DNA of 64,000 nt, taken from contig JAJZQN010000019.1 of NCBI GenBank assembly GCA_021847605.1, forward strand, positions 485 through 64,484, in the 5' to 3' direction. A program made the position numbers and the translations under genes. The notes below the pieces were generated by a model. That model ran no database searches. It saw nothing but the letters and a program-made list of their open reading frames with translations, and was not told where the DNA came from. This document shows, one piece after another, positions 41,610 through 64,000 of this stretch (its first letter is position 1; each line of letters begins with the position of its first letter). The stretch is from Pseudomonadota bacterium. Its GTDB lineage: Bacteria > Pseudomonadota > Alphaproteobacteria > Sphingomonadales > Sphingomonadaceae.

Positions 41610-41649
41610 TCAGGCCCCTGTGCATTGTAGGGACACAGATTCACGGTAG
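41610..41649 (+). repeat. Tn3-family terminal inverted repeat (left)
   Basis: TCAGGCCCCTGTGCATTGTAGGGACACAGATTCACGGTAG. The reverse complement of 46705-46744 matches at 36/40 positions. Confidence 0.85.
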
Positions 41650-46704: not shown

Positions 46705-46744
46705 CTACCGTGAATCCGTGTCCTGATAATGCACAGGGGCCTGA
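46705..46744 (-). repeat. Tn3-family terminal inverted repeat (right)
   Basis: Reverse complement is TCAGGCCCCTGTGCATTATCAGGACACGGATTCACGGTAG. Confidence 0.85.
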
Positions 46745-47355
46745 TCGGGGTCAGTGCGGTCGATATAGCCGAGCGGGTTGTAACGGGCGGTCCGCCCTTC
46801 CGGATCGGTCGGGTTGAACAGGTAAACGGCCTGGCCGTATTTCTTGCGGAAGCCCGCCGTCGCGTCCCAATTCTCGCGCTTCACATCGAGGACGACGACC
46901 GACTCCTGCCATGACAGGAGGTTCGGGATGACGATGCCGACGCCCTTGCCCGAGCGGGTAGGGGCCTCGACGATGCAATGTTCGCTGCCCCCGAAGGTCA
47001 GGAACCTGGCGCCCTTCTTTCCCAGGACGATGCCGTCATTTGCGCGGAATCCGGCGCGACGGATCTCGCTTTCTTTGGCGAAGCGGGCAGCCCCGTGGAG
47101 AGGGGGCTTTCGCTTTGCGACCCACCACAACATGAGGCCGGCGATGATGATGCCGACCAATGCACCTCCGGCGAGCGCTTTCAGCACCACGGGATCGTGC
47201 CGATAATACCAGAAGAACCCCGGCATCTTGAAAATGTCGAACTTGGCGCTGGGGAGGCCCAGGTAGATCCACGCGACGACCGAGGCGATAAGGAAAGCCA
47301 CGACGATCCCGACCGGAATGCCGAGGGCGAGAATGGTGCCCCTTCTAGGCTGCAT
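46745..47355 (-). pseudogene. virD4: 5' fragment of VirD4/TraG-type coupling protein, truncated by the Tn3-family element
   Basis: Two N-terminal TM helices and the Walker A context (VEAPTRSGKGVGIVIPN). Only about 203 native residues are present. The frame continues into IR-R and ends in ...PVHYQDTDSR, the same IR-encoded tail as the dehydrogenase fragment. Confidence 0.8.
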
Positions 47356-49548: not shown

Positions 49549-49549
49549 G

Positions 49550-50389
49550 TCAGTTCTCCGTCGTGCGCTCGACAGCTTCCGACGCCGTATCCGTCTTGGG
49601 ATCGCGACCGTAGAAGCTCGGGCTTTCGTTGTAGATGCACAGCACCACCTTCCCCCGGCGCAGGCGCAGCTCCTTGTAGACGCCATGAATGACGACGAAC
49701 TCGTCGCGCACGTCGAAGGAGGCTGTGGCTTCACTGCCGTCGGGATTGACGGTGAAGATGGCAGGAATTTCGCGCTGGTTGGGGAAGCGCATCACGGTGA
49801 ATTGCCCGTTGTCGCTGACTTCCGATGGTTGCAGCGCTGATGCGCCCTGCACCTTGTAATTGAGGTTCCGTGTCCCTTCGAGAACACCCATATCGAGCGC
49901 GATCCTCGTGGCCTTATTCTGCGCATCCAAGACCGTCGCGAGTTGCGCGCGCTGTTGTGCCAAACGGGCCTGCGCCGCCTCATATTCAGGGTAACGGAGC
50001 CGCACCTTGAAGAATGTGCCTGGAGAGCGCGCCGCAGCGACGGTCGACAGCTCAAAGGTGTAGTTGCGCTTGGTGCCTTGGAAGTCCGTCACAACGATGA
50101 GGTTGGTGGCACCAGCGCGCTCGCGAGGCTTCACGAACAGCGAATTGTCAGCCGGGGCGACCTCCCACGACACGGTGTCACCCATCGCCACGAACTTGAT
50201 GACCTCGCCGGGTGCGAACTCAATCTGTGTCGCTGTGCGGAACGCGCTCCGGATCTGGATCACGTTTCCATCGGTGTAATTGACCTCGCGGATACGAGCA
50301 TCAGGACCGCGCTGCGTAGGCGTCTGCGCCATCGCCGGCGCTGCCGACATGGCGCCGATCGCCGCGGCCAGAAGCAGGATGGTCTTCAT
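49550..50389 (-). CDS. virB9: VirB9
   Basis: 279 aa with a signal peptide. Its position and sequence pattern (REVNYTDGNVIQIR...) fit VirB9. Confidence 0.85.
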   Translation of the reverse strand: MKTILLLAAAIGAMSAAPAMAQTPTQRGPDARIREVNYTDGNVIQIRSAFRTATQIEFAPGEVIKFVAMGDTVSWEVAPADNSLFVKPRERAGATNLIVVTDFQGTKRNYTFELSTVAAARSPGTFFKVRLRYPEYEAAQARLAQQRAQLATVLDAQNKATRIALDMGVLEGTRNLNYKVQGASALQPSEVSDNGQFTVMRFPNQREIPAIFTVNPDGSEATASFDVRDEFVVIHGVYKELRLRRGKVVLCIYNESPSFYGRDPKTDTASEAVERTTEN

Positions 50390-51078
50390 CGTGTCGGAAC
50401 CTCCACGTCGGCCCGGTATGTCTTGACCTGAAACCCGAGCGGATTGGCGTATCGACCGGATTCTGTTTCCGGCTTCGACAGCACGTCAAAAGTGATGGTT
50501 GCGATGGCAGGCGTCTCAATCACCTGCTGGTCGCGCTGGAGGCGCTTGATGAAGCGGACTTGCGCGACGTTGGGCGAGATGAACGCAACCGAGCGGATCG
50601 CCACGAAAACCGCGTCACTGGCGGTAAACTGGTTTTGCGGGGAGTCCGGATTGTCTTTCTTGTAGAAGGCGGTCCAGCGGGTTTGTTCCTCCCGTGTCGA
50701 CAGCGCCAGCACCTTGCGGAAGAACTCTTCCCTGGCCTGCGGAATCCACCCTTCGCGAGCGCGAACATAATCGGCGAGGAAATACTTCCGGATCGCCTCG
50801 TCATAAGTGATCGTCTTGTCGCCGCGCAGCTCCTGCGTGACTTCGGTTGCACCCGTCGAGCGATCGACGGTGACAACATAGGGCACCACCGTTTTGAGCG
50901 GCGAGAGCGCCAGCACGGCAGCCGCGCAGATCGCGGCGAACACGATGGCGACGATGGCGACGATCCACGCGACACGGCGCGAGCGAACCGCTGCCACGAA
51001 CCTGTCGCGGTCCCAGCTTTCCGCTTCCGCGAAATATGCCTTCAGATCCTCGTCTTTGTCTTTGACGCCAATAGCCAT
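50386..51078 (-). CDS. virB8: VirB8
   Basis: ATG at 51078. Single TM (VAWIVAIVAIVFAAICAAAVLAL) plus an NTF2-like periplasmic domain. The longer start in the track is R-rich and overlaps the upstream gene. Confidence 0.85.
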   Translation of the reverse strand: MAIGVKDKDEDLKAYFAEAESWDRDRFVAAVRSRRVAWIVAIVAIVFAAICAAAVLALSPLKTVVPYVVTVDRSTGATEVTQELRGDKTITYDEAIRKYFLADYVRAREGWIPQAREEFFRKVLALSTREEQTRWTAFYKKDNPDSPQNQFTASDAVFVAIRSVAFISPNVAQVRFIKRLQRDQQVIETPAIATITFDVLSKPETESGRYANPLGFQVKTYRADVEVPTR

Positions 51079-51079
51079 G

Positions 51080-51451
51080 TCAGCAGCTCGCATATGAGAT
51101 TGAGAGCGCGGCGGTCGGACTACCATTTGGTGTGAGAGCGCCGATTGCCGGCACCTTGCCTGTTCGCGAAGCGTCCGCTCCCTCTGGAGCGGACGCCGCG
51201 CCGTCGGCCGGGAAGAGGTTGGTAGCCGGAGCCGATTGCGATGGGGGTGTGCCACGTGGCACACCATCAGCGGGAGCAGCCGAGGTAGCGTTTCGCGGCG
51301 GAATCGACGGAAGAACGGTCCCATAGAGGTTGGCGGGTCGCTTTTGCCGACCGTTGCACCGAGGCAGCTTCTCGTCTTTCGCAGCGCTCGCCGGAGCCGA
51401 GGGAGTGAGAGCCGCGAGGGCAAGGATGGCTAGTGCTGCACCGAGCTTCAT
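51080..51451 (-). CDS. small secreted Pro/Ala-rich protein in the VirB7 position
   Basis: ATG at 51451 lies 7 nt after ggagat. Signal peptide MKLGAALAILALAALTPSAPASA. The stop lies 1 nt before the virB8 ATG. No canonical lipobox. It contains the 20-bp palindrome at 51246-51265. Confidence 0.5.
   Translation of the reverse strand: MKLGAALAILALAALTPSAPASAAKDEKLPRCNGRQKRPANLYGTVLPSIPPRNATSAAPADGVPRGTPPSQSAPATNLFPADGAASAPEGADASRTGKVPAIGALTPNGSPTAALSISYASC
51246..51265. repeat. 20-bp perfect palindrome GGTGTGCCACGTGGCACACC (parS-like), copy 1
   Basis: Exact copy, inside the VirB7-position ORF. Confidence 0.9.
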
Positions 51452-51464
51452 GTCGGATCTCCGA

Positions 51465-52469
51465 TTAGCTGTTGTTGTAGAGGGTGCCGCCTGCGGCTCG
51501 CGCGTCAGCGCGACGGGCACGATTGGCTTGCCAGCGGTTCACCGCTCGCTGCGGAGCGTTGGACCAGGCGCGGCCGATCATCGGCGCTATTCCCCCGGTT
51601 GCGGCGTTGGCAAACTGTGAGGCGAGTGATGCGCCGCCGCCGCCCAAACCTGCAGCCATTCCTGGTATTTGGAGGAAGAAGAAGAAGCCCAGCGCGTAGA
51701 ACCCAAGGGCTTTAACCGCCGCGAGGATCAGCGAGTCATCCTGCGTGATAGCGTCGATAAACGCGTCTGCTGCGTTCGCTATGAATACCGTTACGAGCAG
51801 CGCGAACGCTACGAGAATGACATAATTCACAATGCTCCCGAGCCACTGGAAGAAGAATGGTCGGGTCGAATCGAAAAGAAGGGCAGCTACAAAAAGAGGA
51901 CCAACGGCAGCAAGCAAGGATAGCGCGAAGAGCGCAAAGGCGCAGATGGCAAACCCAAGTGCAGACGCCAGCAAAGCTGCCAACATAATGACGACATTGA
52001 TAATTTCACTAACGATGATCTCATCCCAATTATTTGGGATGCCTACGAGGTTCTCGCCTTCCTCGGCTGTATGTGCTGCAACGATCTCTTTGATGTTGGC
52101 AATAGCGCGGACTGCGCCCTTCAAAATGCCATCAAAAAAGCCGCCTAGACCGTTTACGTCTTGGGCACCGACAGCATTCGCGACTTCTCTTGGTAGCCCG
52201 TTCATTGCGAGCAAGCCAACCGAAGCGCCATAAAGCGTCGTTACGGCAAAAACGAGCGCAGCTAGTTTCATTCCGCGATAGACGAACTCGCGGAAGGGGT
52301 ATTCCACAGCGCCCCGTAGGATAGCGAAGCCAAGAAGGATGATGTAGATCGTAACTCCCACCCGTAACGGGCCGGAGATCCAACCTATAACGCCGGCATA
52401 GGTGGCAATGACGCCTGCCAGAGCAGCGCTGAGCTGATCGAACATCTCGGTATAGATATTGAAGCCCAT
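51465..52469 (-). CDS. virB6: VirB6/TrbL-type polytopic T4SS protein
   Basis: 334 aa counted from the ATG at 52469. Multiple TM helices. Position is between the eex-like gene and the virB7/8 genes. Confidence 0.8.
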   Translation of the reverse strand: MGFNIYTEMFDQLSAALAGVIATYAGVIGWISGPLRVGVTIYIILLGFAILRGAVEYPFREFVYRGMKLAALVFAVTTLYGASVGLLAMNGLPREVANAVGAQDVNGLGGFFDGILKGAVRAIANIKEIVAAHTAEEGENLVGIPNNWDEIIVSEIINVVIMLAALLASALGFAICAFALFALSLLAAVGPLFVAALLFDSTRPFFFQWLGSIVNYVILVAFALLVTVFIANAADAFIDAITQDDSLILAAVKALGFYALGFFFFLQIPGMAAGLGGGGASLASQFANAATGGIAPMIGRAWSNAPQRAVNRWQANRARRADARAAGGTLYNNS

Positions 52470-52497
52470 TACACGACCCCGGAAATTGTTACGTCGA

Positions 52498-52803
52498 TTA
52501 GATGCCAGCCTCTCGACGAAGCTTGTCAGTCTCGTTCTTGTTGAGAAGTAGTGTCTTGGCAGTATCGACGTTGTTGCAGTTGTTAACGACAACGGCGGGC
52601 CATGACAGCGGTGGACGTTGTGATGCCTTCCACGCAGTGCATATGGTATCTACTTCGGTTAGCTCGCTTTTGTTCTGCATGAAGTACTTGGCACTGCGCA
52701 GCGGCATGTCGGACCGAAGGTTGCTTTCATCCGACTTGGATTCCTTCGTTCCACATGCCGCAAGCGTCAGCAGCAGCCCGGCCAGGCAGAGGCCCTTGGT
52801 CAC
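52498..52803 (-). CDS. Entry-exclusion (EexN-like) lipoprotein
   Basis: Lipobox LTLAAC|G. 101 aa. It sits between virB5 and virB6, as eex does in pKM101-type systems. Confidence 0.65.
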   Translation of the reverse strand: MTKGLCLAGLLLTLAACGTKESKSDESNLRSDMPLRSAKYFMQNKSELTEVDTICTAWKASQRPPLSWPAVVVNNCNNVDTAKTLLLNKNETDKLRREAGI

Positions 52804-53516
52804 GGATTGACCCCAGCCTCAGTCCGAAGCTTGTCAATCTCCGCTCTGTTTGATGCGAGGCTGCGCTGGTAATTTGCCTCTGCTTTTGCCCGGCGCTGCA
52901 ACTCGATCGCCTGAAGGCCCATCTGATCGTTCATCATCTGCGCCTGCTCCAATTGGAGCCGCGCCGACATGTCGGCGCGTTCGGCCGCCGAGGTTGAGCT
53001 GTTGAGCCGACCCCGCAGCTCTTCGAGGCCCTGACGCCGGCTTGTCACGGCATCGCCGACATTACCCGCAAGGCCAGTTGTCACCGCAGCTTCCCGCGAG
53101 CCTTGTTCATAGGCGGCGCGCTGCTCGGGCGTCATCGTCTGCGATCCGCGCCCGAGAAGATCCTGATAAACGTCGTTCGCCTTGCCCCGCAGGCCGCCGA
53201 CGACGTTCAGATCGCCACTGGTGTAGCCATCAAGGCTGCTGGATGACACGTTACTGGTGCGCAGCACGTCGTTCTTGAGCTGGTTCGCGACGTTGCCGAT
53301 GTCCGTCATTTTATTGAGGTCGCGGTACAGCGCCCGTGCTTCATCGAGCTGTTGCGCGCTTTGCTGGACGACTTTCCGGGCCTCGTTCAACTCCTGAAGC
53401 TGCCTGGCGAAGGCCGTTGGGTCATGAACAATGCCACCGAATTGCGCATGTGCCGCACCAGCAGACAGGAGCGCTGATCCCGACAGTGCGAGGGTGACGA
53501 ACTTCAATCTACGCAT
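52800..53516 (-). CDS. virB5: VirB5-type minor pilin/adhesin
   Basis: Signal peptide followed by a helical protein (QLQELNEARKVVQQSAQQLDEARALYRDLN). Position is after virB4. Confidence 0.7.
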   Translation of the reverse strand: MRRLKFVTLALSGSALLSAGAAHAQFGGIVHDPTAFARQLQELNEARKVVQQSAQQLDEARALYRDLNKMTDIGNVANQLKNDVLRTSNVSSSSLDGYTSGDLNVVGGLRGKANDVYQDLLGRGSQTMTPEQRAAYEQGSREAAVTTGLAGNVGDAVTSRRQGLEELRGRLNSSTSAAERADMSARLQLEQAQMMNDQMGLQAIELQRRAKAEANYQRSLASNRAEIDKLRTEAGVNP

Positions 53517-53528
53517 GTCCCTTCTCCT

Positions 53529-55928
53529 TCAGCTTGGACGACGACGTTGGTGGAATACGGGGAGCCAATTGGCGGGATCGGGGCCAAATTCGGCTGCGGC
53601 CTGCACGGCGATCGGTGTTGTTTCGGCGCGTCCCGACAGCACCGACAGCTCGTCATCGAGGCCCGTCAGATCCAGCTCGACCACAACGCTGTCATGACCC
53701 TGCTTCACGAGGAATTTGCGCGATTCCGGCGACAACTCCTCGCGGATGAGCTGATATTCCGCGTCGGTGAGGGAGAACCCGTCAACATAGTCGCGACGCG
53801 CACCCTTTGGATTGGGAAGCATCACCTGGGTCGCGACCTGTTCGAGGATCGAGTGGGCAATATCGCTCTTGAGCGCGTCCGCCGGCGACTGCGTGGCAAA
53901 CACCATCATCGCGTTGCGCTTCCGGTATGTCTTCAAGCCATCCTGCGCGAAGCTCCGGAACGCATCGTCGCCAAGTGCCTTCCAGAACTCGTCGACGGCG
54001 ATGATCGTGCGCTCGCCGGTCAGCAGCTTGTCGATGCGGTGGAACAGGTAGAGCATCAGCGGCGTGCGGACGTCGGCGTTGTCGAGGAAGTCCGTCATGT
54101 CGAACCCGATGAATCGGGCATCGAGCGTCATTTCGTCCGCCGCGTTATCGAACACCCACCCCATCGACCCGCGCGAGGTCCACTTCTCGAGCCGAGCGCC
54201 AATACCGCCTGCGTCCGCCATGCCGAGCATCGTGCGCAGCGCATCGAGCGAACGATCCTCTCGCGGAAGCCGCATCACTGCGGCGATCCCTTCATCGATC
54301 ATCCGCTCTTCCTGAACGGTGATCGGGCGACTTTCGGCGCGAACGAGCTGGCGCACCCACAGCGACAGCCAGGCGCGATCCTCCGGCTTGTTCTCGAGCG
54401 CCTTGAGCGGCGCGAAGCCGGTGGGCTTGCCGTTCTCGAGCGTCAGATAGGTGCCACCCGAAGCCAGCACGAAAATCTGCGCACCGCGGTCCTTGTCGAC
54501 GAAAATCTGACGCGCGCCCGTTTTCTCGGCCTGCGCCATCAGGAAATTGACGATGACCGTCTTGCCGCCCCCGGTCGGGCCAACGATCAGCGTGTGGCCA
54601 ATGTCGCGCTTGTGAAAGCTGAAGAAGTAGGGGCTGCGTGCGCTCGTCTTCATCAGCGCGATCGCGTCCCCCCAATGGTTCCCCGTGGCGAGGCCAGCGG
54701 GATAGGTATGGAAGGGCGAGAACGCCGCGAAGTTCAGCGACGTGATCGGCGCCGGCCTCGCGCGCCATGCGAAATTTCCGACGAGCTGGCTCCAGTAAGC
54801 GGCTTCCAGCGCCGCCCCTTCCCGTGCCGCGACCATGCCGGTATCGGCCAGCGCTGCACGGGCGATCGACATGTTGTCGCGCAGGCCCTTGAGGCTGTCG
54901 GAATAGACCGCGAGCGTGAAGTGGTGATCGCCCAGGACAAAGCGGTTGGACATGAGATCGTCCGCCGCGTCGACAAGATCGAGCATCTGGCTGACGGCCC
55001 GATCATCGGCGTTCTCCATCTGCTTTTGCCGCAGCCGAAAACGCTCTGATGCCGCTGCACGGCCGAGGAATGTGAAGGATTGCGTCAGCACGAACGCGAA
55101 ATCGACCGCCAGCAGAGATTGAAATTGCGTGGGGGTGGTGGACGCCGGGTATTCCCTAATGCCGAAGATGCCGCCAAAAGCGCTTCGATCGGCATCGCGC
55201 ACCTCCACCGTCTCGCCGCCGAAGACGACGCGTTGACGATAGAGCGCGCTGCCGAGGTGCCCCCGGATGATCGGAACCCGGCGATGCCGTCCCGTCATCA
55301 CCATTTCCGCGACTTCCATCGTCTCAGAAAACTTGAGGCCATTATGTCCGTAGATCGAGAGCCGGCGCGGCGAGCAGCGATCCATCAGCTTCTCGAAATC
55401 GCGCGCCTTGTCCTCCAGCGCCTCCAGTAGGTCGGCGTCGATCGCATCGGCTTCGGCTTCGGCCCTCGCCTTGTTCTTGAAGAGCTGCACCAGCTTGTCA
55501 GCACCGTGGACCGATGGGCGCAACGCCAACGTTACGAAGAAGCGGTTGATGAACAACCGCTCCTTGTTCATCCGCGCGAAGTAAGCGGCATCGAGATCCC
55601 GCGCGAAGCGGGACCGGAAATTGCCGCCGGGATATTGCTCAACCCGAGCGCGGACGAGGTGCGTCCAGATCGACAAGCGATCGTCATGCAGGTTGCGCAG
55701 CATCCCATTGAGCTTCGCGTGCCAGTCATTCAGATCGCGCACGTCAGCCGTCTCGAACGCTCGGCCCTGGAGCTCGAACGTTAGCATGATCGCCCCGGAA
55801 TCGAGCACCACCACCTCATCGGTGACGTGCCGCGCATAGGGCAGGAACTTGGTCGGCATCACTTCCTTGAGCGCGACCTTCATCGGCACCTGTTCCGACA
55901 GACGATTGGCCCTAGCCATTGCGGCCAA
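53529..55928 (-). CDS. virB4: VirB4 T4SS ATPase
   Basis: 799 aa. Walker A GPTGGGKTV, Walker B IIAVDEFW. The exact start is uncertain (the 55928 start overlaps virB3 by 17 nt). Confidence 0.9.
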   Translation of the reverse strand: MAAMARANRLSEQVPMKVALKEVMPTKFLPYARHVTDEVVVLDSGAIMLTFELQGRAFETADVRDLNDWHAKLNGMLRNLHDDRLSIWTHLVRARVEQYPGGNFRSRFARDLDAAYFARMNKERLFINRFFVTLALRPSVHGADKLVQLFKNKARAEAEADAIDADLLEALEDKARDFEKLMDRCSPRRLSIYGHNGLKFSETMEVAEMVMTGRHRRVPIIRGHLGSALYRQRVVFGGETVEVRDADRSAFGGIFGIREYPASTTPTQFQSLLAVDFAFVLTQSFTFLGRAAASERFRLRQKQMENADDRAVSQMLDLVDAADDLMSNRFVLGDHHFTLAVYSDSLKGLRDNMSIARAALADTGMVAAREGAALEAAYWSQLVGNFAWRARPAPITSLNFAAFSPFHTYPAGLATGNHWGDAIALMKTSARSPYFFSFHKRDIGHTLIVGPTGGGKTVIVNFLMAQAEKTGARQIFVDKDRGAQIFVLASGGTYLTLENGKPTGFAPLKALENKPEDRAWLSLWVRQLVRAESRPITVQEERMIDEGIAAVMRLPREDRSLDALRTMLGMADAGGIGARLEKWTSRGSMGWVFDNAADEMTLDARFIGFDMTDFLDNADVRTPLMLYLFHRIDKLLTGERTIIAVDEFWKALGDDAFRSFAQDGLKTYRKRNAMMVFATQSPADALKSDIAHSILEQVATQVMLPNPKGARRDYVDGFSLTDAEYQLIREELSPESRKFLVKQGHDSVVVELDLTGLDDELSVLSGRAETTPIAVQAAAEFGPDPANWLPVFHQRRRPS

Positions 55929-56235
55929 ACCCCTTTCGCTTGATGCCTTTCAGGGGAAGCGGCGTGTAACTCGACCCGCCCCAGAAGACGCGGTTACGAT
56001 TGGCCGCTTTGGTGCGGCCCCAGAGAAAGATGAGGCGGAAGGCGTTGACGTCGTGGCGCACCACGAGGCGCGAAATGCCGAACATCACCGCTGCGACGAC
56101 AAGGCCGTAAACGGGGTTTGTCGTCCCGATCAGCGTAATGACCGAGGTCAGCAGGATCACCACGGCCGCCTCGATCGGGATGCCCGCAAACAACGCAGGG
56201 CGCGTCACCGCCAGGAACAGCGTGTTGCGCGCCAT
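55912..56235 (-). CDS. virB3: VirB3
   Basis: ATG at 56235. LFLAVTRPALFAGIP motif and two TM helices. Confidence 0.8.
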   Translation of the reverse strand: MARNTLFLAVTRPALFAGIPIEAAVVILLTSVITLIGTTNPVYGLVVAAVMFGISRLVVRHDVNAFRLIFLWGRTKAANRNRVFWGGSSYTPLPLKGIKRKGFGRNG

Positions 56236-56319
56236 TACTTCCCGTTCTTCCTCCACGCTACGCACTCCACACGAAACGGGTGTGGACGAGGCGCTATTCG
56301 CACCCCGCCCACATACGGA

Positions 56320-56685
56320 TCAGCCCTGAAGCTGATCGACGATCCACGGCGCCGAGAAGATGATCGCGATACCGATGATGACCGTGACGAGCGCGCCTGT
56401 GTTGACGCGACCTGTCAGCCACCCGAAGCCCGCCGCAATCAGCGCAAGGATCGCAACGATGCGCAGGAGCCCGTTGCTCAGCAGACCGAGGACCGCATTG
56501 CCGAAGCTCTCCAAATTGGTCTGTGCGAACGCTGGTTCGGCTGTGACGAGCGATGTCAGCGCCACCAGGCTTGCCATTGAGAGCGCCCGCGACGCTTTTC
56601 GCTGGCGCGGGGTCATCGCCTCAACCCGCTTGGTGACGTGGGTTCGAAGGGCAAGCGCCGGCCCACCGAAAGATGCGAGATTCAT
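56320..56685 (-). CDS. virB2: VirB2/TrbC-type pilin
   Basis: 121 aa with a long leader and two hydrophobic helices. The start overlaps the virB1 stop (ATGA). Confidence 0.8.
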   Translation of the reverse strand: MNLASFGGPALALRTHVTKRVEAMTPRQRKASRALSMASLVALTSLVTAEPAFAQTNLESFGNAVLGLLSNGLLRIVAILALIAAGFGWLTGRVNTGALVTVIIGIAIIFSAPWIVDQLQG

Positions 56686-57368
56686 CGGTTTTCTCCTTCT
56701 TCGGCGAGCCGTGCTCGCTCATATTCCGCCCTCGCGAACACGTCCCACGATGGCGGCGGTGGTGCGGGCATTGCCTGTGGCGGCCCTGCTGGGGACGTGT
56801 TTTCCTCGACCAGCGCGGCGAGCTGCGCAGCCGCGCTCGACCCTCCGCTAGTATCGGTGGCGGGCATCGGTTCACCGATGCGAACGGCGGCGGGCTGGAT
56901 GCCGTCCGAGACGCCGGCATTGCCGACTACCCGCCCGACATAGCCGTTCGAAAAGCCACGCGACTGCGATCCCGTATTGTACATCGATAAAGCGATGCGG
57001 AGCGCGCGCTGCGGGTGAAGTCCGGCGCGCACGCTGTGATAGTTGCCCGAGAGAACCGCTCCGGCAGCGGCGATGTTCGTGCAAGGATCGAACACATTGT
57101 CCCAGGTCAGACCCAGGGCCTTCATGTTGCGGGAGTTGATCTGGCCAAGGCCGAGATCAACCGAGTGACCCTTGCCGATATAGTGACGAGCGAGCGCCAC
57201 CGCCTGCTCACGGCTTGTCGGGACGATCTTGCGACCGAGACCGTTGACGTTGATCGCCCATTCGAAGCCTTGGCTTTCCGTTTGAACGATCGCCGCGATC
57301 GTTGCTGGAGCCACACTCGGCGCGCATTGCGCTGCCAGACCCATGATGACCGCGGCGGGGAGCGTCAT
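56682..57368 (-). CDS. virB1: VirB1-type lytic transglycosylase
   Basis: ATG at 57368 gives the signal peptide MTLPAAVIMGLAAQCAP. SLT motifs IVQTESQG and GLGQINS. Confidence 0.85.
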   Translation of the reverse strand: MTLPAAVIMGLAAQCAPSVAPATIAAIVQTESQGFEWAINVNGLGRKIVPTSREQAVALARHYIGKGHSVDLGLGQINSRNMKALGLTWDNVFDPCTNIAAAGAVLSGNYHSVRAGLHPQRALRIALSMYNTGSQSRGFSNGYVGRVVGNAGVSDGIQPAAVRIGEPMPATDTSGGSSAAAQLAALVEENTSPAGPPQAMPAPPPPSWDVFARAEYERARLAEEGENR

Positions 57369-57729
57369 TACCGCTCCAATGTCTTTGACCCAAGGGGACT
57401 GCCCGGCTGCGCCGTACTTTCCAAATGGGATTTGGGTGCCGCTCCCCGCCCCCCATAGGCGGCATGAAGAGCGAAGTTGAGCCGACCCGATTGGCTGCCG
57501 CGCGGGAGGTTCCTGCAGTTCGGCGTGCTGGTGACGCGAACCGGACCGGAGGCGAACGAAGCCGTCATGAGGCGGCAGCCGCGAGCGATGTAAACAAGCG
57601 ATAAGCCATGTTTTCACTCCACTGGTGAACAAGGCTAAATCGCTATTGGAGCGAGGGCTAGTCCGAAAATGCCCCGGTTGCTCGCTTCATCCCTCTTTGA
57701 GAACGGTTCGCAGATTGGTCCGATTTGGC

Positions 57730-58017
57730 TCAGAATGTAGTTGCGTCCTGTAATCCCGTGAACGGGTGGACGTGAATCACGCCTTCATAGCCATACCCCA
57801 ACACTATATGTCGGATGGCCGAAGAAGCCTTTTTATACAATCGGATACGTTTCTTATCATAGAGGCCGACGTGATAGAGTGCGGTGCCGCGCCAGCTCAC
57901 GCGGACATTGATATGCCACTTGCCAGACTCGTGCTGACAGACGTGAACGTCAGTCATCGTCCCGCCTGGAGGGCGTTGCGTCGTCAGCTCGCGTTCCAGT
58001 ATGAGTTCTAATTCCAT
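57730..58017 (-). CDS. small hypothetical protein (low-GC)
   Basis: 95 aa counted from the ATG at 58017. Divergent from the primase-like gene. No family recognised. Confidence 0.4.
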   Translation of the reverse strand: MELELILERELTTQRPPGGTMTDVHVCQHESGKWHINVRVSWRGTALYHVGLYDKKRIRLYKKASSAIRHIVLGYGYEGVIHVHPFTGLQDATTF

Positions 58018-58111
58018 TGCCACCCTGCTAAAGCGATTTGACTGGTTTTCGCTGGCGCGCATTGCCCCCGCGCTCTACCAACTATGCGTCCTGTAACGGA
58101 GGTGTCCATAG

Positions 58112-58996
58112 ATGGCGCGACGTGAGTCAGCTTCGATCGAGGAGCAGGCGGACCGCATCGTCCGTCAACTTGGCGGAAAGTGGCAAGGTGATTTCGCCAT
58201 GTGCCGGTGTCCGGCGCACGCAGACGGGAAGGCCAGCCTGTCGATACGTGTTGGCGAGCGTGCCGTTCTCTTCCATTGTTTTGCCGGTTGCACGGCCGAC
58301 GCGATCATGTCGGCGTTACGGACAGGCAAGATCCTCGCGCCCGCCAATCACGACCCAGGGCAGCGTCAGGACAGCAAGACGGACCTCAACAAGCTCGCGC
58401 TCGCGGTCTGGCGTCACGCCGAACCCTTCGCTGGCACACTGGCCGATCGCTACCTGCGCGAGGGGCGGTCGATCTTTCCTGATGGGATCAACGCTCGTTT
58501 CGACCCTCGCTGCCAATGCGGTGCTGGTGCCGCTAAGGCTTTTGCGCCTGCCCTTATTGTCCCTATCGAGGAGGACGCCGGCGTCGTCGCGATCCATCGC
58601 ACCTTCCTGCGCCCTGATGGCCGCTGGAAAGCCGATATGGACGAACCCAAGCGAATGCTTGGTAATCCCGGCGTCGGCGCGGTGCGTTGGGGTGGCGTAC
58701 CGCTCGACGGCATCTTGCGGCTCGCCGAAGGCGTCGAGGACGCCGCCAGCGTGATGAACATGCTGGAGCCAGGCCGCTTTGTATGGCCCGTTCTCGGGAT
58801 CGAACGGTATCAGGCTGTCGCGATCCCGGAGAGCGTGCACACCGTCGTCATCTATAGCCAGCATGGGGCCGAGGCAGCGCGCGCGATCGAGCGCGCCACT
58901 CCGCATCTGGCGGCCAACGGCCGCCAGCTCGCCGTGAAGCCACCGCCCCATGCTGGCGACTGGAACGATCTGCTGCGCGAGATCCGTTCGCTATGA
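58112..58996 (+). CDS. Zinc-finger plus Toprim primase-like protein
   Basis: N-terminal CRCPAHADGKASLSI...FHCFAGC zinc motif. C-terminal Toprim context (LRLAEGVEDAASV, HAGDWNDLL). Confidence 0.75.
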   Translation: MARRESASIEEQADRIVRQLGGKWQGDFAMCRCPAHADGKASLSIRVGERAVLFHCFAGCTADAIMSALRTGKILAPANHDPGQRQDSKTDLNKLALAVWRHAEPFAGTLADRYLREGRSIFPDGINARFDPRCQCGAGAAKAFAPALIVPIEEDAGVVAIHRTFLRPDGRWKADMDEPKRMLGNPGVGAVRWGGVPLDGILRLAEGVEDAASVMNMLEPGRFVWPVLGIERYQAVAIPESVHTVVIYSQHGAEAARAIERATPHLAANGRQLAVKPPPHAGDWNDLLREIRSL

Positions 58997-59592
58997 AATT
59001 GTTTCCTGGAGCGACGCGGTTCCAACGATGGACGATGGGGGCGACGTTCATGATCGTGGCAACCTATGCAATCTCGCAGAACAAGCAGTCGCTCGTCGAA
59101 GTCTCGAAAACAAGATTGTCTTCGCCAAGTCCTAGGATCATCGATGGGGATACGATTGATTTTCCCAATGGACGGGTTCGCGTCGTCGGCATCGATGCGC
59201 CCGATGATGATCTGCCACAGCTAAAGGCCATCTCCAGCGAGGCGTTGCGCGGGCTGGCGCTCCGGGACGGCGGAATGGACTGCTCGGTGTCTATGTTTGA
59301 CTATGCGCTGCGGCGGGAGAAGCAGTGCCGCACCGATCCGAAAAGCTACGGGCGGTTGAATCTGGCGTGTCGTTTTCCCGCCAATAAGGCGAGCGTGGGG
59401 GCAACGATGGTCGCCCAAGGCTATGCCGTCGACTACCGCATTTTCTCCGGTGGAGCCTATGTCGAGCTGATGCAGAAGGCGGCAGCGCAGCGGGCAGGAT
59501 TATGGGGCGTGGACTATGAGGGAATGCGTCAGCTTGCTGTTCGCAGGGCGCAGGTGCCGCAGGGATGTAGCACAGGGACGATCAAGAAATAG
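58993..59592 (+). CDS. Thermonuclease (SNase)-family nuclease
   Basis: IIDGDTIDFPNGRVRVVGIDAPD matches the SNase motif. N-terminal TM/signal segment. The start overlaps the upstream stop (ATGA). Confidence 0.75.
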   Translation: MKLFPGATRFQRWTMGATFMIVATYAISQNKQSLVEVSKTRLSSPSPRIIDGDTIDFPNGRVRVVGIDAPDDDLPQLKAISSEALRGLALRDGGMDCSVSMFDYALRREKQCRTDPKSYGRLNLACRFPANKASVGATMVAQGYAVDYRIFSGGAYVELMQKAAAQRAGLWGVDYEGMRQLAVRRAQVPQGCSTGTIKK

Positions 59593-59600
59593 GCTGCACA

Positions 59601-59930
59601 ATGCTTGAACGCGGATCGCCAAGAGCGGCATTGATCGGCCGCTGGGGGATGGCCCTCACACTTGTTACCGGCGCGGTCCTGATCGGCCGCCTGATCCGTA
59701 ATTTCCCCTATCTCCTGCCCAATCGGCTTCCTGGCCTTGTCCTATACGAGCTGGGTCCGGCGCTGATCTTGGTTGCTGCGGTCGGCAGCGCCGTGGTCTT
59801 CACCAAGGAAGACGGACCGCGCCTTGGCATCCCTGCGCGGCTCGTGCTGTTTGCACTCGTCGCGACGATCGCCGGGACCGCTACCCTTGCTGCCGAATAT
59901 GCTGCCGCTCTCGACGGGCAATGGCTATGA
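59601..59930 (+). CDS. small membrane protein
   Basis: 109 aa with three predicted hydrophobic helices. Confidence 0.45.
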   Translation: MLERGSPRAALIGRWGMALTLVTGAVLIGRLIRNFPYLLPNRLPGLVLYELGPALILVAAVGSAVVFTKEDGPRLGIPARLVLFALVATIAGTATLAAEYAAALDGQWL

Positions 59931-59936
59931 ACACGA

Positions 59937-59956
59937 GGTGTGCCACGTGGCACACC
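59937..59956. repeat. 20-bp perfect palindrome GGTGTGCCACGTGGCACACC (parS-like), copy 2
   Basis: Exact copy, intergenic, upstream of the ORF at 60005. Confidence 0.9.
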
Positions 59957-60004
59957 CCTATCGCGAGACCTACATGGCGTCGCGATGACTTTTGCGAGGG
60001 TGTG

Positions 60005-60262
60005 ATGCCGATAGAGCCTTTCGTTCTTATTGTTGCCGATCACGACAGGCGCGTCTTTTCGGTCGAGGGGCCGATGGTGGACGACAACCCGTGGTCAAAG
60101 CCGGTCGTCGATGCTCAAGATGGCGGCAAGCGCCACATCAACTGCTTCGTTCCCGGTGGCCCCTCGCGCACCGACGTAGAGACCGCCGCGCGCGAATATC
60201 AGCGTGAATATGGGTATGCGCGTGTTGAGGCGGGATCGATCGTCAGCCGCAAACCCTGCTAA
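60005..60262 (+). CDS. small hypothetical protein
   Basis: 85 aa counted from the ATG at 60005. The parS-like palindrome lies 49 nt upstream. Confidence 0.45.
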   Translation: MPIEPFVLIVADHDRRVFSVEGPMVDDNPWSKPVVDAQDGGKRHINCFVPGGPSRTDVETAAREYQREYGYARVEAGSIVSRKPC

Positions 60263-60283
60263 GGTCACAGGAACCGGCATCAA

Positions 60284-61156
60284 TCAACCTGGTTCGTTCA
60301 TGCTATCTATCTGGCGCATTTGACCCGCCAAGCCGCTCAGACGGCCCTTCAGGCGTTGATCGCCGCTGCCGGGCTGCTGGAGGGCCAACCTCGTCTGACG
60401 GTGCTTCAGGCGCTGGCGATTGGGCACGACGACCTTCCCGTCGCGAACGACGACACCCGTGATCTCCGCTGGCCGATCCACATAGTGCTTGAGCTTGTGA
60501 TAGCGCAGCCCTGTCCGGTGGATCATGCGCCGCACATGCCAAACATCTGCTACGGGCACTTTCGCGCCGGAAATTGTCACGTCATCGACATAGACCGTCA
60601 GCGTGTAGCCCTTGGCCGTGCAGAACGCCGCGATCTCGGCCCACATATCGTGATAGCTATAATATGCCAGGATCGGGCTGAGGGGACTGCCCGTCGGCAA
60701 ATGACCCTCGAACGTGCAAAGATCACCAAGAAGGCCGGCAACGTCGGCGCGGCATCCCATGATGCTTTGGAAGAACGCGATCACCCGCACACGGGGCGTG
60801 TTGGGGAAGAACTTCTTGATGTCGAGGCAGTGAACGACGCGGTTGCCGCGATGGCGCGCGGCATTGCTGACGTAGCATCGTCCCTTCACCGGGCAGAACA
60901 GAAAAGATGGCGGCTCGATCCGCGCCAGCATCTTGGCGATACGGCCCTGTACACGCTTGAGCGGCGCGACCGGATCTTCAACCGGACGTTTTCCGCCACT
61001 CTTCTTCTCAATCTCAAACTGCCGATACCGATCCGGCCCGGTCGCCATTGCCCGCAGCTCAGCTTCTGCAAGGCCGAGCACGTCAGCGAGGCGGCGCGGA
61101 CTCGTGAGCTTATAGAGCTGCGACTGATTGAGCGGGATGACCGTCTTATTCGGCAT
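60284..61156 (-). CDS. Retron-type reverse transcriptase
   Basis: 290 aa. Motifs NAARH (NAxxH), LDIKKFFPN (RT motif A), LPTGSPLSP (motif B), YVDD (motif C) and EITGVVV (VTG-like). The N-terminal ...YRQFEIEKKSGGKRPV..PVAPLKRVQ pattern matches retron RTs. Confidence 0.8.
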   Translation of the reverse strand: MPNKTVIPLNQSQLYKLTSPRRLADVLGLAEAELRAMATGPDRYRQFEIEKKSGGKRPVEDPVAPLKRVQGRIAKMLARIEPPSFLFCPVKGRCYVSNAARHRGNRVVHCLDIKKFFPNTPRVRVIAFFQSIMGCRADVAGLLGDLCTFEGHLPTGSPLSPILAYYSYHDMWAEIAAFCTAKGYTLTVYVDDVTISGAKVPVADVWHVRRMIHRTGLRYHKLKHYVDRPAEITGVVVRDGKVVVPNRQRLKHRQTRLALQQPGSGDQRLKGRLSGLAGQMRQIDSMNEPG

Positions 61157-61451
61157 GGGTCCGACCGGACCGAGCCTCGAGGAATTGAAGCAGGCTCACC
61201 ACCTTGCCAGCGACAAAGGTCCGTGCCTGGTCGAGCGTGCTCTTCTGATCGAGGTTCTCCGAAAAGAACATGATCGACGAGACAGGCATGTCGAAGACAG
61301 TGGCATAGCGCTGGATGATGTCCAGCGTGGGCGTCTTCAGGCCGCGTTCGATTTCCGACAGATACGACGTCGAAACCTCCAACCGCTCAGCCGCCTGCTT
61401 CTGCTTGAGGTCGTGATAGACTCGGATCAAGCGAAGAGCTTCACCCAACAT
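61146..61451 (-). CDS. XRE-family HTH protein
   Basis: ATG at 61451 lies after aaggag. HTH_3 pattern (LKQKQAAERLEVSTSYLSEIERGLKTPTLD). The stop overlaps the RT start by 11 nt. Confidence 0.8.
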   Translation of the reverse strand: MLGEALRLIRVYHDLKQKQAAERLEVSTSYLSEIERGLKTPTLDIIQRYATVFDMPVSSIMFFSENLDQKSTLDQARTFVAGKVVSLLQFLEARSGRTHAE

Positions 61452-61486
61452 TGCATCTCCTTTCAGGAGGCTATTCAGGGTGCGAA

Positions 61487-61660
61487 TTACTGGCGGAAAA
61501 CCTTGATGATGGAGAGGGCGATGTGGAGCAGTTGCACCACCACTCGCCCCAAGGCCACCACCGTCTTCAAAGTGGACGGACGGATCAGGCGCTTTGCCCA
61601 ATGCTGCCGTCGCACCGTCTTCGTTCGCGCACGCTTCTCGTTCAGACCAAGCTTTCGCAT
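61487..61660 (-). CDS. 57-aa basic protein with hydrophobic C-terminal helix
   Basis: ATG at 61660 lies 5 nt after gaggagg. GC-rich third positions. N-terminal half is K/R-rich. C-terminal TVVALGRVVVQLLHIALSIIKVF is TM-like. Confidence 0.55.
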   Translation of the reverse strand: MRKLGLNEKRARTKTVRRQHWAKRLIRPSTLKTVVALGRVVVQLLHIALSIIKVFRQ

Positions 61661-61901
61661 GGCGTCCTCCTCTGCCAACCCCCACACCATGCAGAGGCGC
61701 CGCCGAGGCTTTGGAGGGTGGGGTAGAAGCACGTTAACCCTGAACACCAAGGCGGACACCGGGCCGTCCGGTGGCCGCCCGCGGCGCCGCTCGCTCGCAC
61801 GCACGGAGCCACAAAGCAGAGAAGGTTTCTTCTCCAGGAGGGGGTTCCCCCTCGGTTGATGGCGACACATCCCCTTTCAAACTGAACGAGAGTGTGATGC
61901 C

Positions 61902-61918
61902 CTAGCGCACTTCGCTAG
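61902..61918. promoter_or_regulatory. Palindrome CTAGCG-N5-CGCTAG next to a TTGACT hexamer (candidate operator)
   Basis: On the minus strand, TTGACT is immediately followed by AGCGAAGTGCGCTAG. This is the only AT-rich patch of the RT-module leader. Confidence 0.35.
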
Positions 61919-61924
61919 TCAACG

Positions 61925-61952
61925 AATAAAATCCGCTCACAGCGAATTTATT
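61925..61952. repeat. AT-rich imperfect inverted repeat AATAAA..CGCT-cac-AGCG..TTTATT
   Basis: Seen directly in the sequence. It adjoins the 61902-61918 palindrome. Confidence 0.5.
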
Positions 61953-62229
61953 GCTCTGCTTAAGCGGCGGCCGACGACGTTCCGCCCTTCCCTGCCATGC
62001 GACTGGACGACTCGATGCCAATCTACCGGCGAGCAGGTCATTATGTCTGAAGCTTGCGGGCTGCGTGCCAGTGCCGCAGATAAGCCAAGGGCCGCCCTTT
62101 TGAGGCGGCCCCGACCATTTAGTTCCCTCGCGGGAAACGGACACTCCCCAGGGGGAGGCCGCGCGTGCTCCCCATGTAGAAACCCATCCCTTACGATTCA
62201 ACTAAAATCTGAAAGGACATCAACCGGCC

Positions 62230-62679
62230 TTACGCGCCGGAACCGGTGGGCGTAGGCGGCACCCCCTGAGGCGGCGACGGGGGCGTCGAGGGCACGGGCA
62301 GCCAGGCCAACACAAGGCGCAGCATGTCGTCGAACTCCCCGACCGGCATTCGCATGATGCCGCCTTTGTCAGGGATTAGCCGGCTCACTGCCACGGTCGT
62401 CAGCTTGTCGCAGATCGCGAACGCCGCCCGACCGTCAATCGTGGTCTGCAGCGGAAAGGCCCACTTGTTTCCTGGCTGCGCTGCCGTCGAGCAGGGCACC
62501 ACCGTGACCGCGCCATGCAGCGTGTTCTTGAACGACACGATGATGACGGGGCGCCGCTTCCAGAACTCCGGGAGCTGGGCGTCTTGCGGAAAGTCACACC
62601 AGTAGAGCTGACGGATGCTTGGCGCGGCCGTAACCCTCGGTTCCACTTTCGGGGGTGGATCTTGGATATGCGCGTTCAC
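62230..62679 (-). CDS. PemK/MazF-fold toxin-like protein with Pro-rich C-terminal tail
   Basis: LYWCDFP...E..KRRPVIIVS...VTVVPCST pattern. The GTG start overlaps the upstream stop (GTGA). Confidence 0.7.
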   Translation of the reverse strand: MNAHIQDPPPKVEPRVTAAPSIRQLYWCDFPQDAQLPEFWKRRPVIIVSFKNTLHGAVTVVPCSTAAQPGNKWAFPLQTTIDGRAAFAICDKLTTVAVSRLIPDKGGIMRMPVGEFDDMLRLVLAWLPVPSTPPSPPQGVPPTPTGSGA

Positions 62680-63161
62680 TCGTCGTCATCCTGTACCAGA
62701 CGCAGCTTAGGCGCCCCGGCCCGGTTCTGACGGCGCTTCGCCAGCTCGGCCTTGTCCTTGATCTCAGCCAGCTTCTCGACCGCGAACGGCGCTACTGCCT
62801 TAATCAGCCCATCGAGATGGTAGATGTTGGTGCGGCTGCCGGTTTCGGTCCGCCGCTCCTCGCGACGGATATACCCTGCCCCCTCCAGCGCAGCGATGTG
62901 CTTCTGGATCGTGCGCGGATGAACGTCCATCGCCTTCGCCATCGTGGTCTTGGACGGAAAGGGCTTGCCCTCCGCCGTCCACCATTTGCTCGCCAGATAC
63001 ACGATGATGTTGAGATCGAGCGGCGACAGCATGAGCTGGCGCTGATTTTCGATGATGACGCTCGGCAATGCAGTCCAGCCCGCATCCATCAGCGGCTTGG
63101 TCCACTTCTTCTCATTCGTTCGCAGATCGGCGCTGCTGTCCTTTTGCTTTTTCGCAGCCAT
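62676..63161 (-). CDS. winged-HTH protein (candidate antitoxin/regulator)
   Basis: ATG at 63161 lies after aaagga. MAKAMDVHPRTIQKHIAALEGAGYIRRE is a wHTH pattern. Translationally coupled to the PemK-like gene. Confidence 0.6.
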   Translation of the reverse strand: MAAKKQKDSSADLRTNEKKWTKPLMDAGWTALPSVIIENQRQLMLSPLDLNIIVYLASKWWTAEGKPFPSKTTMAKAMDVHPRTIQKHIAALEGAGYIRREERRTETGSRTNIYHLDGLIKAVAPFAVEKLAEIKDKAELAKRRQNRAGAPKLRLVQDDDE

Positions 63162-63216
63162 GTGATTATCCTTTCTGGCTGCAAATATGCCCCTCGCGCG
63201 AAGGGGATTCAAGTTT

Positions 63217-63265
63217 GAGGGGGCGGCACTAGGGGCGCCCCACAGGGCGCGCAGGCCGCCCCCTC
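63217..63265. repeat. Strong GC-rich nested hairpin
   Basis: 11-bp arms GAGGGGGCGGC and GCCGCCCCCTC enclose an inner GGCGCCC-caca-GGGCGC hairpin. Confidence 0.7.
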
Positions 63266-63441
63266 CCCGGCCCTTTGGACCGCCCACCCGGGAGCCACAC
63301 GGGGCCTACAAAGCATAGGACATCCCCATATAGGAACCGCTCAGGGTACACTCCTGGCGTATCAACCGAGGATAAACCCAGCGGGAGCCCCCACGGCCTC
63401 CCCCTCTCCCCGTGTTTTCCTATTCGCGCTGCCGCAAGGCA

Positions 63442-63461
63442 GGTGTGCCACGTGGCACACC
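63442..63461. repeat. 20-bp perfect palindrome GGTGTGCCACGTGGCACACC (parS-like), copy 3
   Basis: Exact copy, in the 600-bp region between the wHTH gene and ardC. Confidence 0.9.
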
Positions 63462-63761
63462 CCCCATGACACGCCTGGAGCGTGGCACAGCTTGTTGGGC
63501 ACGCTGCCCTCCCCCGGAGGCCAGACCGGTGCCGGGGAACACCAAGGGCGGCTGCCCTTTCGTTCCCGAACGACAATCAGGCCCCCCGTGTAATCCGCCA
63601 AACGCGGCACCCGACGCCCTGCGGAGCGTCGGCCGCGCTAGGCGGCTCGCCCGCGCCAGAGGCCAGATTCTCGCCCTCCCTCCCCATCCCGTTCCTCGCC
63701 GGAAAGGCAGAGCCGGTTGCTGTTGCGACCGGCTTTCAGCCTCAAAGGAAAGGAAGACATC

Positions 63762-64000
63762 ATGGGACGGATCACCGACAATCGAGCCGACATCTATCAG
63801 GAAATCACCGATCAGATGATCGCGATGATCGAGGCAGGCACCCGGCCTTGGTCGAAATCGTGGAACGGCAGCACCGCACCGAATATCCCGCTCCGCTCGA
63901 CCGGCGTTCCCTATCGGGGCATCAACGTCCTGACCCTTTGGGTTGCCGCCATGACCAAGGGCTATGGCTCTCCGCATTGGCTGACCTTCAAGCAGGCGCT
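63762..64000 (+). CDS. ardC: ArdC-like antirestriction protein, N-terminal ssDNA-binding domain (partial, runs off the window)
   Basis: ATG at 63762 lies after aaaggaaaggaag. Translation by hand: MGRITDNRADIYQEITDQMIAMIEAGTRPWSKSWN...GVPYRGINVLTLW...SPHWLTFKQA, which matches the ArdC/DUF1738 N-terminus. Absent from the ORF track because no stop occurs in the window. Confidence 0.75.
   Translation, partial: MGRITDNRADIYQEITDQMIAMIEAGTRPWSKSWNGSTAPNIPLRSTGVPYRGINVLTLWVAAMTKGYGSPHWLTFKQA

Follow-up and report, generated by a model that had tools for sequence, protein, structure and literature searches.

A parS-like palindrome repeated along a conjugative plasmid backbone of sphingomonads and its candidate cognate protein, ParB337

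The palindrome and its surroundings in the window

The stretch of DNA analyzed here, called the window throughout, comprises 64,000 nucleotides of contig JAJZQN010000019.1 (Sphingomonadaceae, assembly GCA_021847605.1), and its right-hand part (46754-64000) is a plasmid backbone carrying a type IV secretion operon. This backbone holds three copies of a 20-bp palindrome, GGTGTGCCACGTGGCACACC. Judged from sequence comparison, the palindrome is probably a parS-type loading site of a plasmid partition protein, here named ParB337, that would also dampen the transfer and establishment operons in the manner of KorB. The three copies, none of which is assigned to a strand, are as follows.

51246..51265, palindrome copy 1: inside a virB7-like open reading frame (ORF) between virB6 and virB8; exact match to GGTGTGCCACGTGGCACACC
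59937..59956, palindrome copy 2: 7 bp past the stop codon of the small ORF that closes the toprim operon; exact match
63442..63461, palindrome copy 3: divergent region between a toxin-antitoxin operon (minus strand) and the leader of ardC (plus strand); exact match

Copy 2 precedes the ATG of a small ORF (60005) by 49 bp, within a gap of 74 bp, and copy 3 precedes the ardC start (63762) by 301 bp and a conserved leader by about 40 nt. A scan of both strands of the window allowing up to three mismatches returned no further match, and matches of any kind to GGTGTGCCACGTGGCACACC were found in 0/100 dinucleotide-preserving shuffles. The first-pass annotation of this DNA, which had reported three exact copies and only three, with none in the chromosomal part, was thus borne out, as window 1-46753 is free of the palindrome. 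The left 41 kb carry sphingomonad carbohydrate-utilization genes and belong to a chromosome or megaplasmid. The contexts named in that annotation (type IV secretion operon, small ORF, and ardC) were right, with the refinement that copy 1 sits within the virB7-like ORF.

Direct comparison confirmed the reported likeness to parS. The 16-bp core TGTGCCACGTGGCACA agrees with the Bacillus subtilis site TGTTCCACGTGAAACA at 13/16 positions and with the palindromic parS form TGTTTCACGTGAAACA at 12/16, the four differing bases being placed symmetrically, and the half-site TGTGCCAC is one specified base apart from the chromosomal consensus TGTTNCAC. The palindrome is a 16-bp inverted repeat related to TGTTNCACGTGAAACA, a variant and not canonical parS. 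The exact 16-mer TGTGCCACGTGGCACA occurred in no paper among about 8 million full texts searched.

Copy 1 is situated in a variable Pro/Ala-rich linker of the virB7-like ORF, where it encodes ..ADGVPRGTPP.. in the translation. Its first 18 bp are invariant in seven relatives and the flanking coding sequence is variable and rich in indels, so that this 18-bp island argues for selection on the DNA motif and not on the protein. Compensatory changes are absent from the palindrome, which argues for selection on sequence rather than on a hairpin. The palindrome is absent from the equivalent linker of the virB7-like homolog of Sphingomonas sp. FARSPH.

The neighboring features of the window are listed below.

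41641..44592, minus strand: Tn3-family transposase gene (Pfam DDE_Tnp_Tn3, 4.6e-128)
46705..47355, minus strand: virD4 coupling-protein gene, about 200 codons left (profile positions 2-122 of 468; 211/600 residues aligned)
47345..57632, minus strand: virB1-virB11 type IV secretion operon (Pfam SLT, CagE/VirB4, T4SS VirB5, TrbL/VirB6, VirB8, CagX/VirB9, TrbI/VirB10, and T2SSE/VirB11)
51080..51451, minus strand: virB7-like ORF for a small secreted protein or lipoprotein, 123 aa, read from the sequence
58112..59930, plus strand: toprim (DUF7146)-thermonuclease-small ORF operon, ending at copy 2 (Pfam scan, tblastn)
60284..61685, minus strand: type VI retron, consisting of reverse transcriptase (60284-61156; RT_VI 1.5e-88) and helix-turn-helix protein (61146-61685; HTH_VI 2e-34)
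62230..63287, minus strand: toxin-antitoxin pair, helix-turn-helix antitoxin and PemK/MazF-type toxin (ORFs; annotation of the 99%-identical p4 region)
63500..63761, plus strand: conserved structured non-coding leader, about 260 nt, directly upstream of ardC
63762..64000, plus strand: 5' part of the antirestriction gene ardC, running off the window (Pfam ArdcN 2.7e-24; 98.7% identity to ArdC of p4)

Plasmid p4, its relatives, and ParB337

The complete plasmid p4 of Sphingobium xenophagum C1 (NZ_CP022750.1, 79,937 bp) served as a stand-in for the full replicon. The window backbone (46754-64000) is 98-99% identical to p4, reaching 99.3% in 57000-64000. Homology spans window 46754-51491 and 52864-64000 and ends within virD4. 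The virB6 region (51492-52863) is the only part of the backbone without a megablast match to p4; VirB6 is 65% identical there and the flanking genes are 98-100% identical, which indicates a mosaic replacement of virB6. All three copies lie within the p4-like stretch; the first-pass annotation had placed them on the conjugative backbone. The Tn3-family transposase gene lies some 2 kb past the point (46754) at which the backbone breaks off, and its insertion is, from its position, probably the cause of the virD4 truncation, owing to which this copy of the backbone is probably not self-transmissible. The relaxase, parAB, and rep portion of the backbone falls outside the window.

The further copies and the parB gene that the annotation had proposed to look for on the full replicon are present in p4. 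Of its seven sites, five are exact, one differs by a central C-to-T change, and one is changed in the outer flank only. All are on a 43.6-kb backbone arc, with 0 in the other 36 kb, which hold replication and accessory DNA, and none of the multiplied sites adjoins replication genes. The site positions in the p4 clade are the following.

parB-nikA gap; relaxase gene, at its 3' end; past the LPD7 gene; within the virB7-like ORF
past the toprim operon; ahead of the ardC leader; ahead of the leader of the ParB2-like operon

This confinement to the backbone, together with the absence of copies from window 1-46753 and the intragenic position of one window copy, does not fit a genome-wide repetitive extragenic palindromic (REP) repeat, which had been named as a finding that would undo the proposal. 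When p4 and the window were searched de novo for further perfect palindromes that recur, only short two-copy 12-mers came up, and a comparable repeated palindrome was likewise missing from the FARSPH backbone; a rival centromere candidate is therefore absent.

Scanning one genome per species with the 16-bp core returned at least 119 loci. Across plasmid-like contigs of sphingomonads, the site is found at the same eight positions of the backbone, with neighboring proteins 65-95% identical among the matches listed, and orthologs of copy 2 follow a homolog of hyp47053 in many such contigs. The KorB-like dispersal suggested by the annotation is therefore real, with orthologous positions kept in relatives. 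Plasmids of the p4 clade have six to seven sites along the transfer and establishment backbone, and sister plasmids have one, downstream of parB. The S. aerolata plasmid, read except for its last 2.2 kb, encodes ParA and ParB337 (67% identity) and has six perfect cores at orthologous positions. FARSPH p03 and pTomTYG46b have no p4-type sites; each has a single site of its own type next to parB337.

Two ParB-family proteins, ParB337 and ParB617, are encoded by p4. The former (about 335 aa; WP_244917370.1 in p4) is the product of an operon of a small ORF, parA, and parB beside the nikA relaxase region, adjoined by a small divergent YlcI/YnfO-type gene. The possibility that the element encodes no ParB-family protein, raised in the annotation, is thereby countered by a replicon 99.3% identical to the window. 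ParB337 has a ParB_N domain, a GERRWRA motif of the cytidine triphosphate (CTP)-binding type, a helix-turn-helix, and a borderline match to the Pfam KorB domain. It scored 117.6 bits with TIGR00180 (cutoff 58), NCBIfam assigning the generic parB_part model only, and its best match in the PDB was Caulobacter ParB (1.7e-17), with KorB 8qa8 at 2e-15. A candidate cognate ParB with ParA and an adjoining site on the same replicon was found in p4 and 14 relatives and is missing from the window itself. In p4, one site lies 100 bp downstream of the parB337 stop codon.

At this orthologous parB337-nikA position, each of 15 plasmid lineages has exactly one palindrome, which changes with the recognition helix of ParB337 and falls into three arm types.

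Helix GRNRTLLTRY, 8 lineages (67-100% identity): palindrome TGTGCCACGTGGCACA, TGTGCC arms
Helix GRDRA(T/R)L(N/S)R(Y/L), 6 lineages: palindrome TGTGGC-N4-GCCACA, central tetranucleotide free
Helix GRDQARLSRF, 1 lineage (AAP5): palindrome CATGGCCCGGGCCATG, CATGGC arms

In AAP5, an Arg-to-Gln change at the equivalent of Caulobacter R173 accompanies a G-to-A change at position 1 of the palindrome. R173 and Q173 read that base in ParB and Noc, respectively, and the paired change follows the ParB-to-Noc specificity rule (PMC7383237). A co-evolved ParB-family protein of altered specificity, as the annotation had proposed, agrees well with this covariation, and the comparative evidence did not uphold the possibility that the ParB of the element binds a different site. 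Binding of ParB337 to the palindrome is accordingly proposed on sequence grounds with high confidence. A ParB337 dimer would read both TGTGCC arms through its helix-turn-helix (recognition helix GRNRTLLTRY) and, by analogy with ParB and KorB, would then close as a CTP-dependent clamp and slide onto flanking DNA. The outcome would be assembly of the partition complex and dampening of neighboring transfer and establishment operons as ParB accumulates in a new host.

The loci of the specificity series are L133-L138, L129 (33641), and L132 (record 73337), and GRDRARLSRL is among the helices of the TGTGGC type. The parB-proximal site of p4 (L002, 25225-25300) lies about 40 bp from CCTATCCTGCC, a sequence kept in all lineages. 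CCTATCCTGCC resembles what we take to be the MOBP nick motif, ATCCTG/C, and the site may lie next to the origin of transfer.

In Phycisphaerae and Tepidisphaeraceae, clusters of the 16-mer TGTGCCACGTGGCACA also flank canonical chromosomal parB genes, as on the chromosome of Fontivita pretiosa. Further clusters occur in Kiritimatiellae, Hyphomicrobium, and other contigs of metagenome-assembled genomes, with no parB gene detected nearby. The loci of the clusters of both kinds are L035 (1245 and 2346), L098 (seven copies in 1.6 kb), L007 (6674 and 6784), and L032 (6271-6691). In Phycisphaerae, TGTGCCACGTGGCACA looks like the native chromosomal parS variant. The ParB helix of these bacteria, GEDRTSIAHYLRLL, has Tyr at the equivalent of Caulobacter T179, as does ParB337, and ParBs beside canonical parS have Thr, Ala, Leu, or Met at this position, which gives a separate hint at ParB337 as the reader.

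Possible other readers and roles of the sites

Several observations weigh against ParB337 acting on these sites in a KorB-like way. The window has no ParB homolog by tblastn, as the annotation had stated, and its backbone is truncated at virD4; in its source replicon the cognate ParB may be absent and the three sites orphaned. The last 50 or so residues of p4 ParB337 (L002, 25377-26390, minus strand) align with no relative, the relatives ending in ...IEIEGKRAMVVEALLHF..PRIVSWR, which suggests that the C-terminal region of the p4 protein, possibly involved in dimerization, is frameshifted or affected by a sequencing error. The Pfam KorB domain PF08535 reached 22.8 bits in the p4 protein (cutoff 22.3) and 20.2, 20.6, 17.8, and no match in four relatives, and the KorB C-terminal domain PF06613 was not found in the p4 protein or its relatives. 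Membership of ParB337 in the KorB family is thus not demonstrable, and by analogy the protein may work as KorB does at its operator (OB). No KorA or TrbA analogue turned up, no systematic search for either having been made, and a literature search on KorB of sphingomonad plasmids found nothing relevant. A promoter and terminator scan of 57500-64000 gave nothing beside the palindromes and was uninformative on operator-promoter geometry. Finally, three plasmids with ParB617 and without a ParB337 match (E≤1e-20) keep the palindrome upstream of the ParB617 operon, and the helix-turn-helix of ParB617 also differs between clades, so that co-occurrence alone leaves ParB617 possible as the reader.

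A selected regulatory role of the sites, in the sense of KorB-like dampening, is favored because of site placement and the KorB precedent, and as an argument from analogy it is put at an even chance. The sites could instead be purely multiple centromeres, at which ParB337 loads in several places for a more robust partition complex, in the way of the clustered parS sites of chromosomes, without a selected transcriptional effect. This is possible, though a good deal less probable. ParB337 is encoded with ParA and has one site in the classical position downstream of parB, three of the seven p4 sites are inside ORFs (virB7-like, relaxase 3' end, and hyp21203) and a fourth is between two genes of one operon, no promoters were predicted beside the sites, and a KorA-like partner was not identified. 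Sister plasmids of similar size, however, manage with one site, and the extra copies are placed reproducibly before the leaders of ardC and ParB617, between parB and nikA, and in transfer operons, with none in the replication and accessory arc. Moreover, KorB, the known system with such a layout, uses it for silencing.

The second ParB of p4 could read the palindrome, or the copies upstream of leading-region modules, and autoregulate its own operon and ardC, instead of or together with ParB337. ParB617 (617 aa; L001, 22709-24562, minus strand) is preceded by a 63-aa ORF, lacks a ParA partner, and has matches by tblastn (E≤1e-20) in at least 5000 plasmids, mostly of Escherichia, Klebsiella, and Salmonella. 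It is probably ParB2 of the ssb-parB2-psiB clusters, the function of which is unknown (PMC8406263). In p4 and many relatives, a near-perfect site precedes the small-ORF/ParB617 operon by about 300 bp, the protein has a ParB_N domain and a chromosomal-type HTH_ParB domain, and its recognition helix is identical in all site-keeping plasmids and differs in pTomTYG46b and pJE1, both of which lack the site; in pJE1, no palindrome was found before the ParB617 or ardC modules. The three plasmids without a ParB337 match that keep the site before the ParB617 operon are these.

S. macrogoltabida: 1 site, core intact and adjacent spacer diverged; 146/151 kb read; tblastn at E≤1e-3 likewise gave neither ParA nor ParB337
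WTD-1: 2 sites, both with central CATG; 18 kb read
S. paucimobilis: 4 sites; 100 kb read

The sites in such plasmids may be relics of a mobile module, may have a co-resident element or a host ParB acting on them in trans, or may be used by ParB617. Against ParB617 as the reader stand the six perfect sites of the S. aerolata plasmid, in which neither ParB617 nor ArdC was found in the part read, and the lack of parS-contact residues, the equivalents of Caulobacter K171, S172, R173, and N178 being Q, A, V, and K. The R173 equivalent is Glu or Asp in the sister clade, and R173 is invariant in parS-specific variants (PMC7383237). The parB337-proximal site covaries with ParB337 and not with ParB617, and the same leader upstream of DUF3768 is never accompanied by the palindrome. 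ParB337 is therefore favored, on account of the covarying proximal sites, the S. aerolata plasmid without ParB617, and the missing parS-contact residues, and a reading by ParB617 is improbable.

Two attempted discriminators were given up. Helix-turn-helix differences alone were dropped because the helices of both proteins differ between the two clades, and NIC1, considered as a case of broken ParB617, was rejected because its assembly is frameshifted in many genes, which makes its pseudogenes untrustworthy; NIC1 also has a 1-bp deletion inside the parB-proximal palindrome. ParB617 is intact in pTomTYG46b and disrupted in FARSPH p03, where the gene (L129, 5851-13267) is split by a 5-kb insertion with a tyrosine recombinase and three hypothetical genes. 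Site copies upstream of the ParB617 operon (L001, 25101; L141, 7426 and 11972; L083; and L142, 7444) show a recurrent central CpG-to-TpG change in separate lineages, turning CACGTG into CATGTG or CACATG, which copies elsewhere almost never have. It could reflect relaxed constraint at the center or deamination of methylated cytosine.

That the palindromes are recombination joints or hot spots by which cargo cassettes are assembled in the leading region is very improbable. In the window, p4, and pHT, two sites exactly bracket a 3.5-kb cargo of type VI retron and toxin-antitoxin pair (copies 2 and 3 and 59957-63441 in the window), two relatives without this cargo (L036 and L059) have a single site between the toprim operon and the ardC leader, and in S. 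paucimobilis (L127) the sites interleave other defense cargo, DUF3800 and caspase/TIR genes. Such bracketing would fit equally well if each module had an operator of its own, or if identical operators recombined incidentally; directionality cannot come from a perfect palindrome, no dedicated recombinase co-occurs, and the covariation with the ParB337 helix, the invariant virB7-like site, and the clusters near chromosomal parB in other phyla are left unexplained.

Equally remote is use of the sites by a hitch-hiked host chromosomal ParB or an unrelated transcription factor, or as an RNA or DNA hairpin (terminator or REP-like): the half-site is only one specified base from the chromosomal one, sites persist in plasmids without ParB337, and the palindrome can form a 10-bp hairpin, but lineage-specific covariation with the plasmid's own ParB would be unexpected, sequence and not pairing is conserved, and there is no T-tract and no copy in 41 kb of non-backbone DNA. 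Also rejected were readings of the palindrome as a terminator, a REP element, a restriction site, or the operator of a generic transcription factor.

Possible establishment control and comparison with known systems

The leader of about 260 nt upstream of ardC is present in three copies in p4, all on the same strand, before ardC, the small-ORF/ParB617 operon, and a DUF3768-Fic operon (the copies elsewhere in p4 being L001, 24817-25058 and 20366-20549, both minus strand). The ardC leader and that of the small-ORF/ParB617 operon share 84% identity. RNAalifold predicted 60 pairs, 14 of them with compensatory changes. Rfam (50000-64000, E≤1) returned a sub-threshold P26 match on one leader hairpin only and no family for palindromes or leader. 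In most ardC and ParB617 modules of the p4 clade, the palindrome lies about 40-49 nt upstream of the leader. The leader may be a structured 5' untranslated region or a single-strand promoter of leading-region genes in the sense of the Frpo concept (PMC11541004).

These features allow a further, tentative reading, rather doubtful at present, in which the multiplied sites form a zygotic switch that controls the whole transfer and establishment backbone. On entry, ParB337 would be absent and the ardC and ParB2-like modules would fire from their structured leaders, maybe as Frpo-like single-strand promoters. Later, ParB337 would load just ahead of these leaders, between parB and nikA, and within the virB operon, slide as a CTP clamp, and shut the backbone down. 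The leading-region ParB2-like protein may act on the same sites, and if it does, they would be the first DNA target for that family.

If the ParB337 reading holds, a second plasmid family, unrelated in sequence to IncP-1, has recruited a partition ParB across its conjugation and establishment genes, which suggests that KorB-style control of a whole backbone evolved more than once. The ParBs concerned, close relatives that have three palindromes between them and differ little in the helix, would offer material for a ParB-DNA recognition code and for orthogonal ParB/parS labelling pairs, TGTGCC, TGTGGC, and CATGGC forming a natural three-step specificity series beyond the ParB/Noc pair. The link of ParB sites to a previously undescribed structured leader before antirestriction and ParB2-like genes would likewise bear on leading-region switching during establishment.

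Conserved upstream (CUP) repeats are found within the IncN plasmid pKM101's leading region. The leader resembles CUP, Frpo, and ssi elements as a repeated non-coding module of about 260-300 bp before several leading-region operons on the same strand, combining operator logic with a structured element. It differs from them in having no sequence similarity to known elements and no Rfam match, and its operator would be that of ParB and not of ArdK.

The SopB/sopC centromere sites of the phage-plasmid N15 are dispersed, and VirB of Shigella is a ParB-like regulator acting at a distance. Like these two systems and BisD of ICEclc, the p4-type backbone has several separated sites on a mobile element, with expression affected at a distance in the known systems. 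Unlike ParB337, they belong to other protein subfamilies with other site sequences; neither BisD nor VirB is a partition protein paired with ParA, and the effect of BisD is activation, not repression. Transfer-competence genes are switched on by BisD, a CTP clamp (PMC12409273).

With chromosomal ParB/Spo0J and parS (TGTTNCACGTGAAACA), the system shares a palindrome of 16 bp, identical in the outer TGT/ACA and in the central CACGTG, and the recognition helix of ParB337 keeps the G-[KR]-x-R start. It departs from them in that each half-site is changed symmetrically at two bases, of which one is the N position, in its placement on a plasmid backbone and not in a cluster near the chromosomal origin, and in the lack of the N-terminal LG(R/K)GL motif of the chromosomal ParBs aligned. 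As in Noc and its binding site NBS, a ParB recognition helix appears naturally reprogrammed together with its palindrome. Noc is, however, a membrane-associated nucleoid-occlusion factor without ParA, whereas every variant here is a ParB of the plasmid partition type, and no code has been published for the other bases that are altered (positions 3-4).

The closest likeness in layout is to KorB and OB of the IncP-1 plasmid RK2, where KorB acts with IncC/ParA and with KorA and TrbA, its partners in locking the clamp. In both systems, a plasmid ParB-family protein is encoded with ParA, a GxRRxR motif of the CTP-binding type is shared, and identical short palindromes are dispersed over the backbone, at promoters (KorB) or far away or inside genes; seven sites in p4, six in the S. 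aerolata plasmid, and three in the partial backbone of the window show this dispersal. Unlike OB, which we take to be TTTAGCSGCTAAA, the site is the parS-like TGTGCCACGTGGCACA, and the replicon differs, having an RPA initiator and residing in sphingomonads. The mechanism class, that of ParB and KorB, is already known. After loading at OB, KorB slides in the form of a CTP clamp and brings about silencing at a distance (PMC11790492; PMC13584720).

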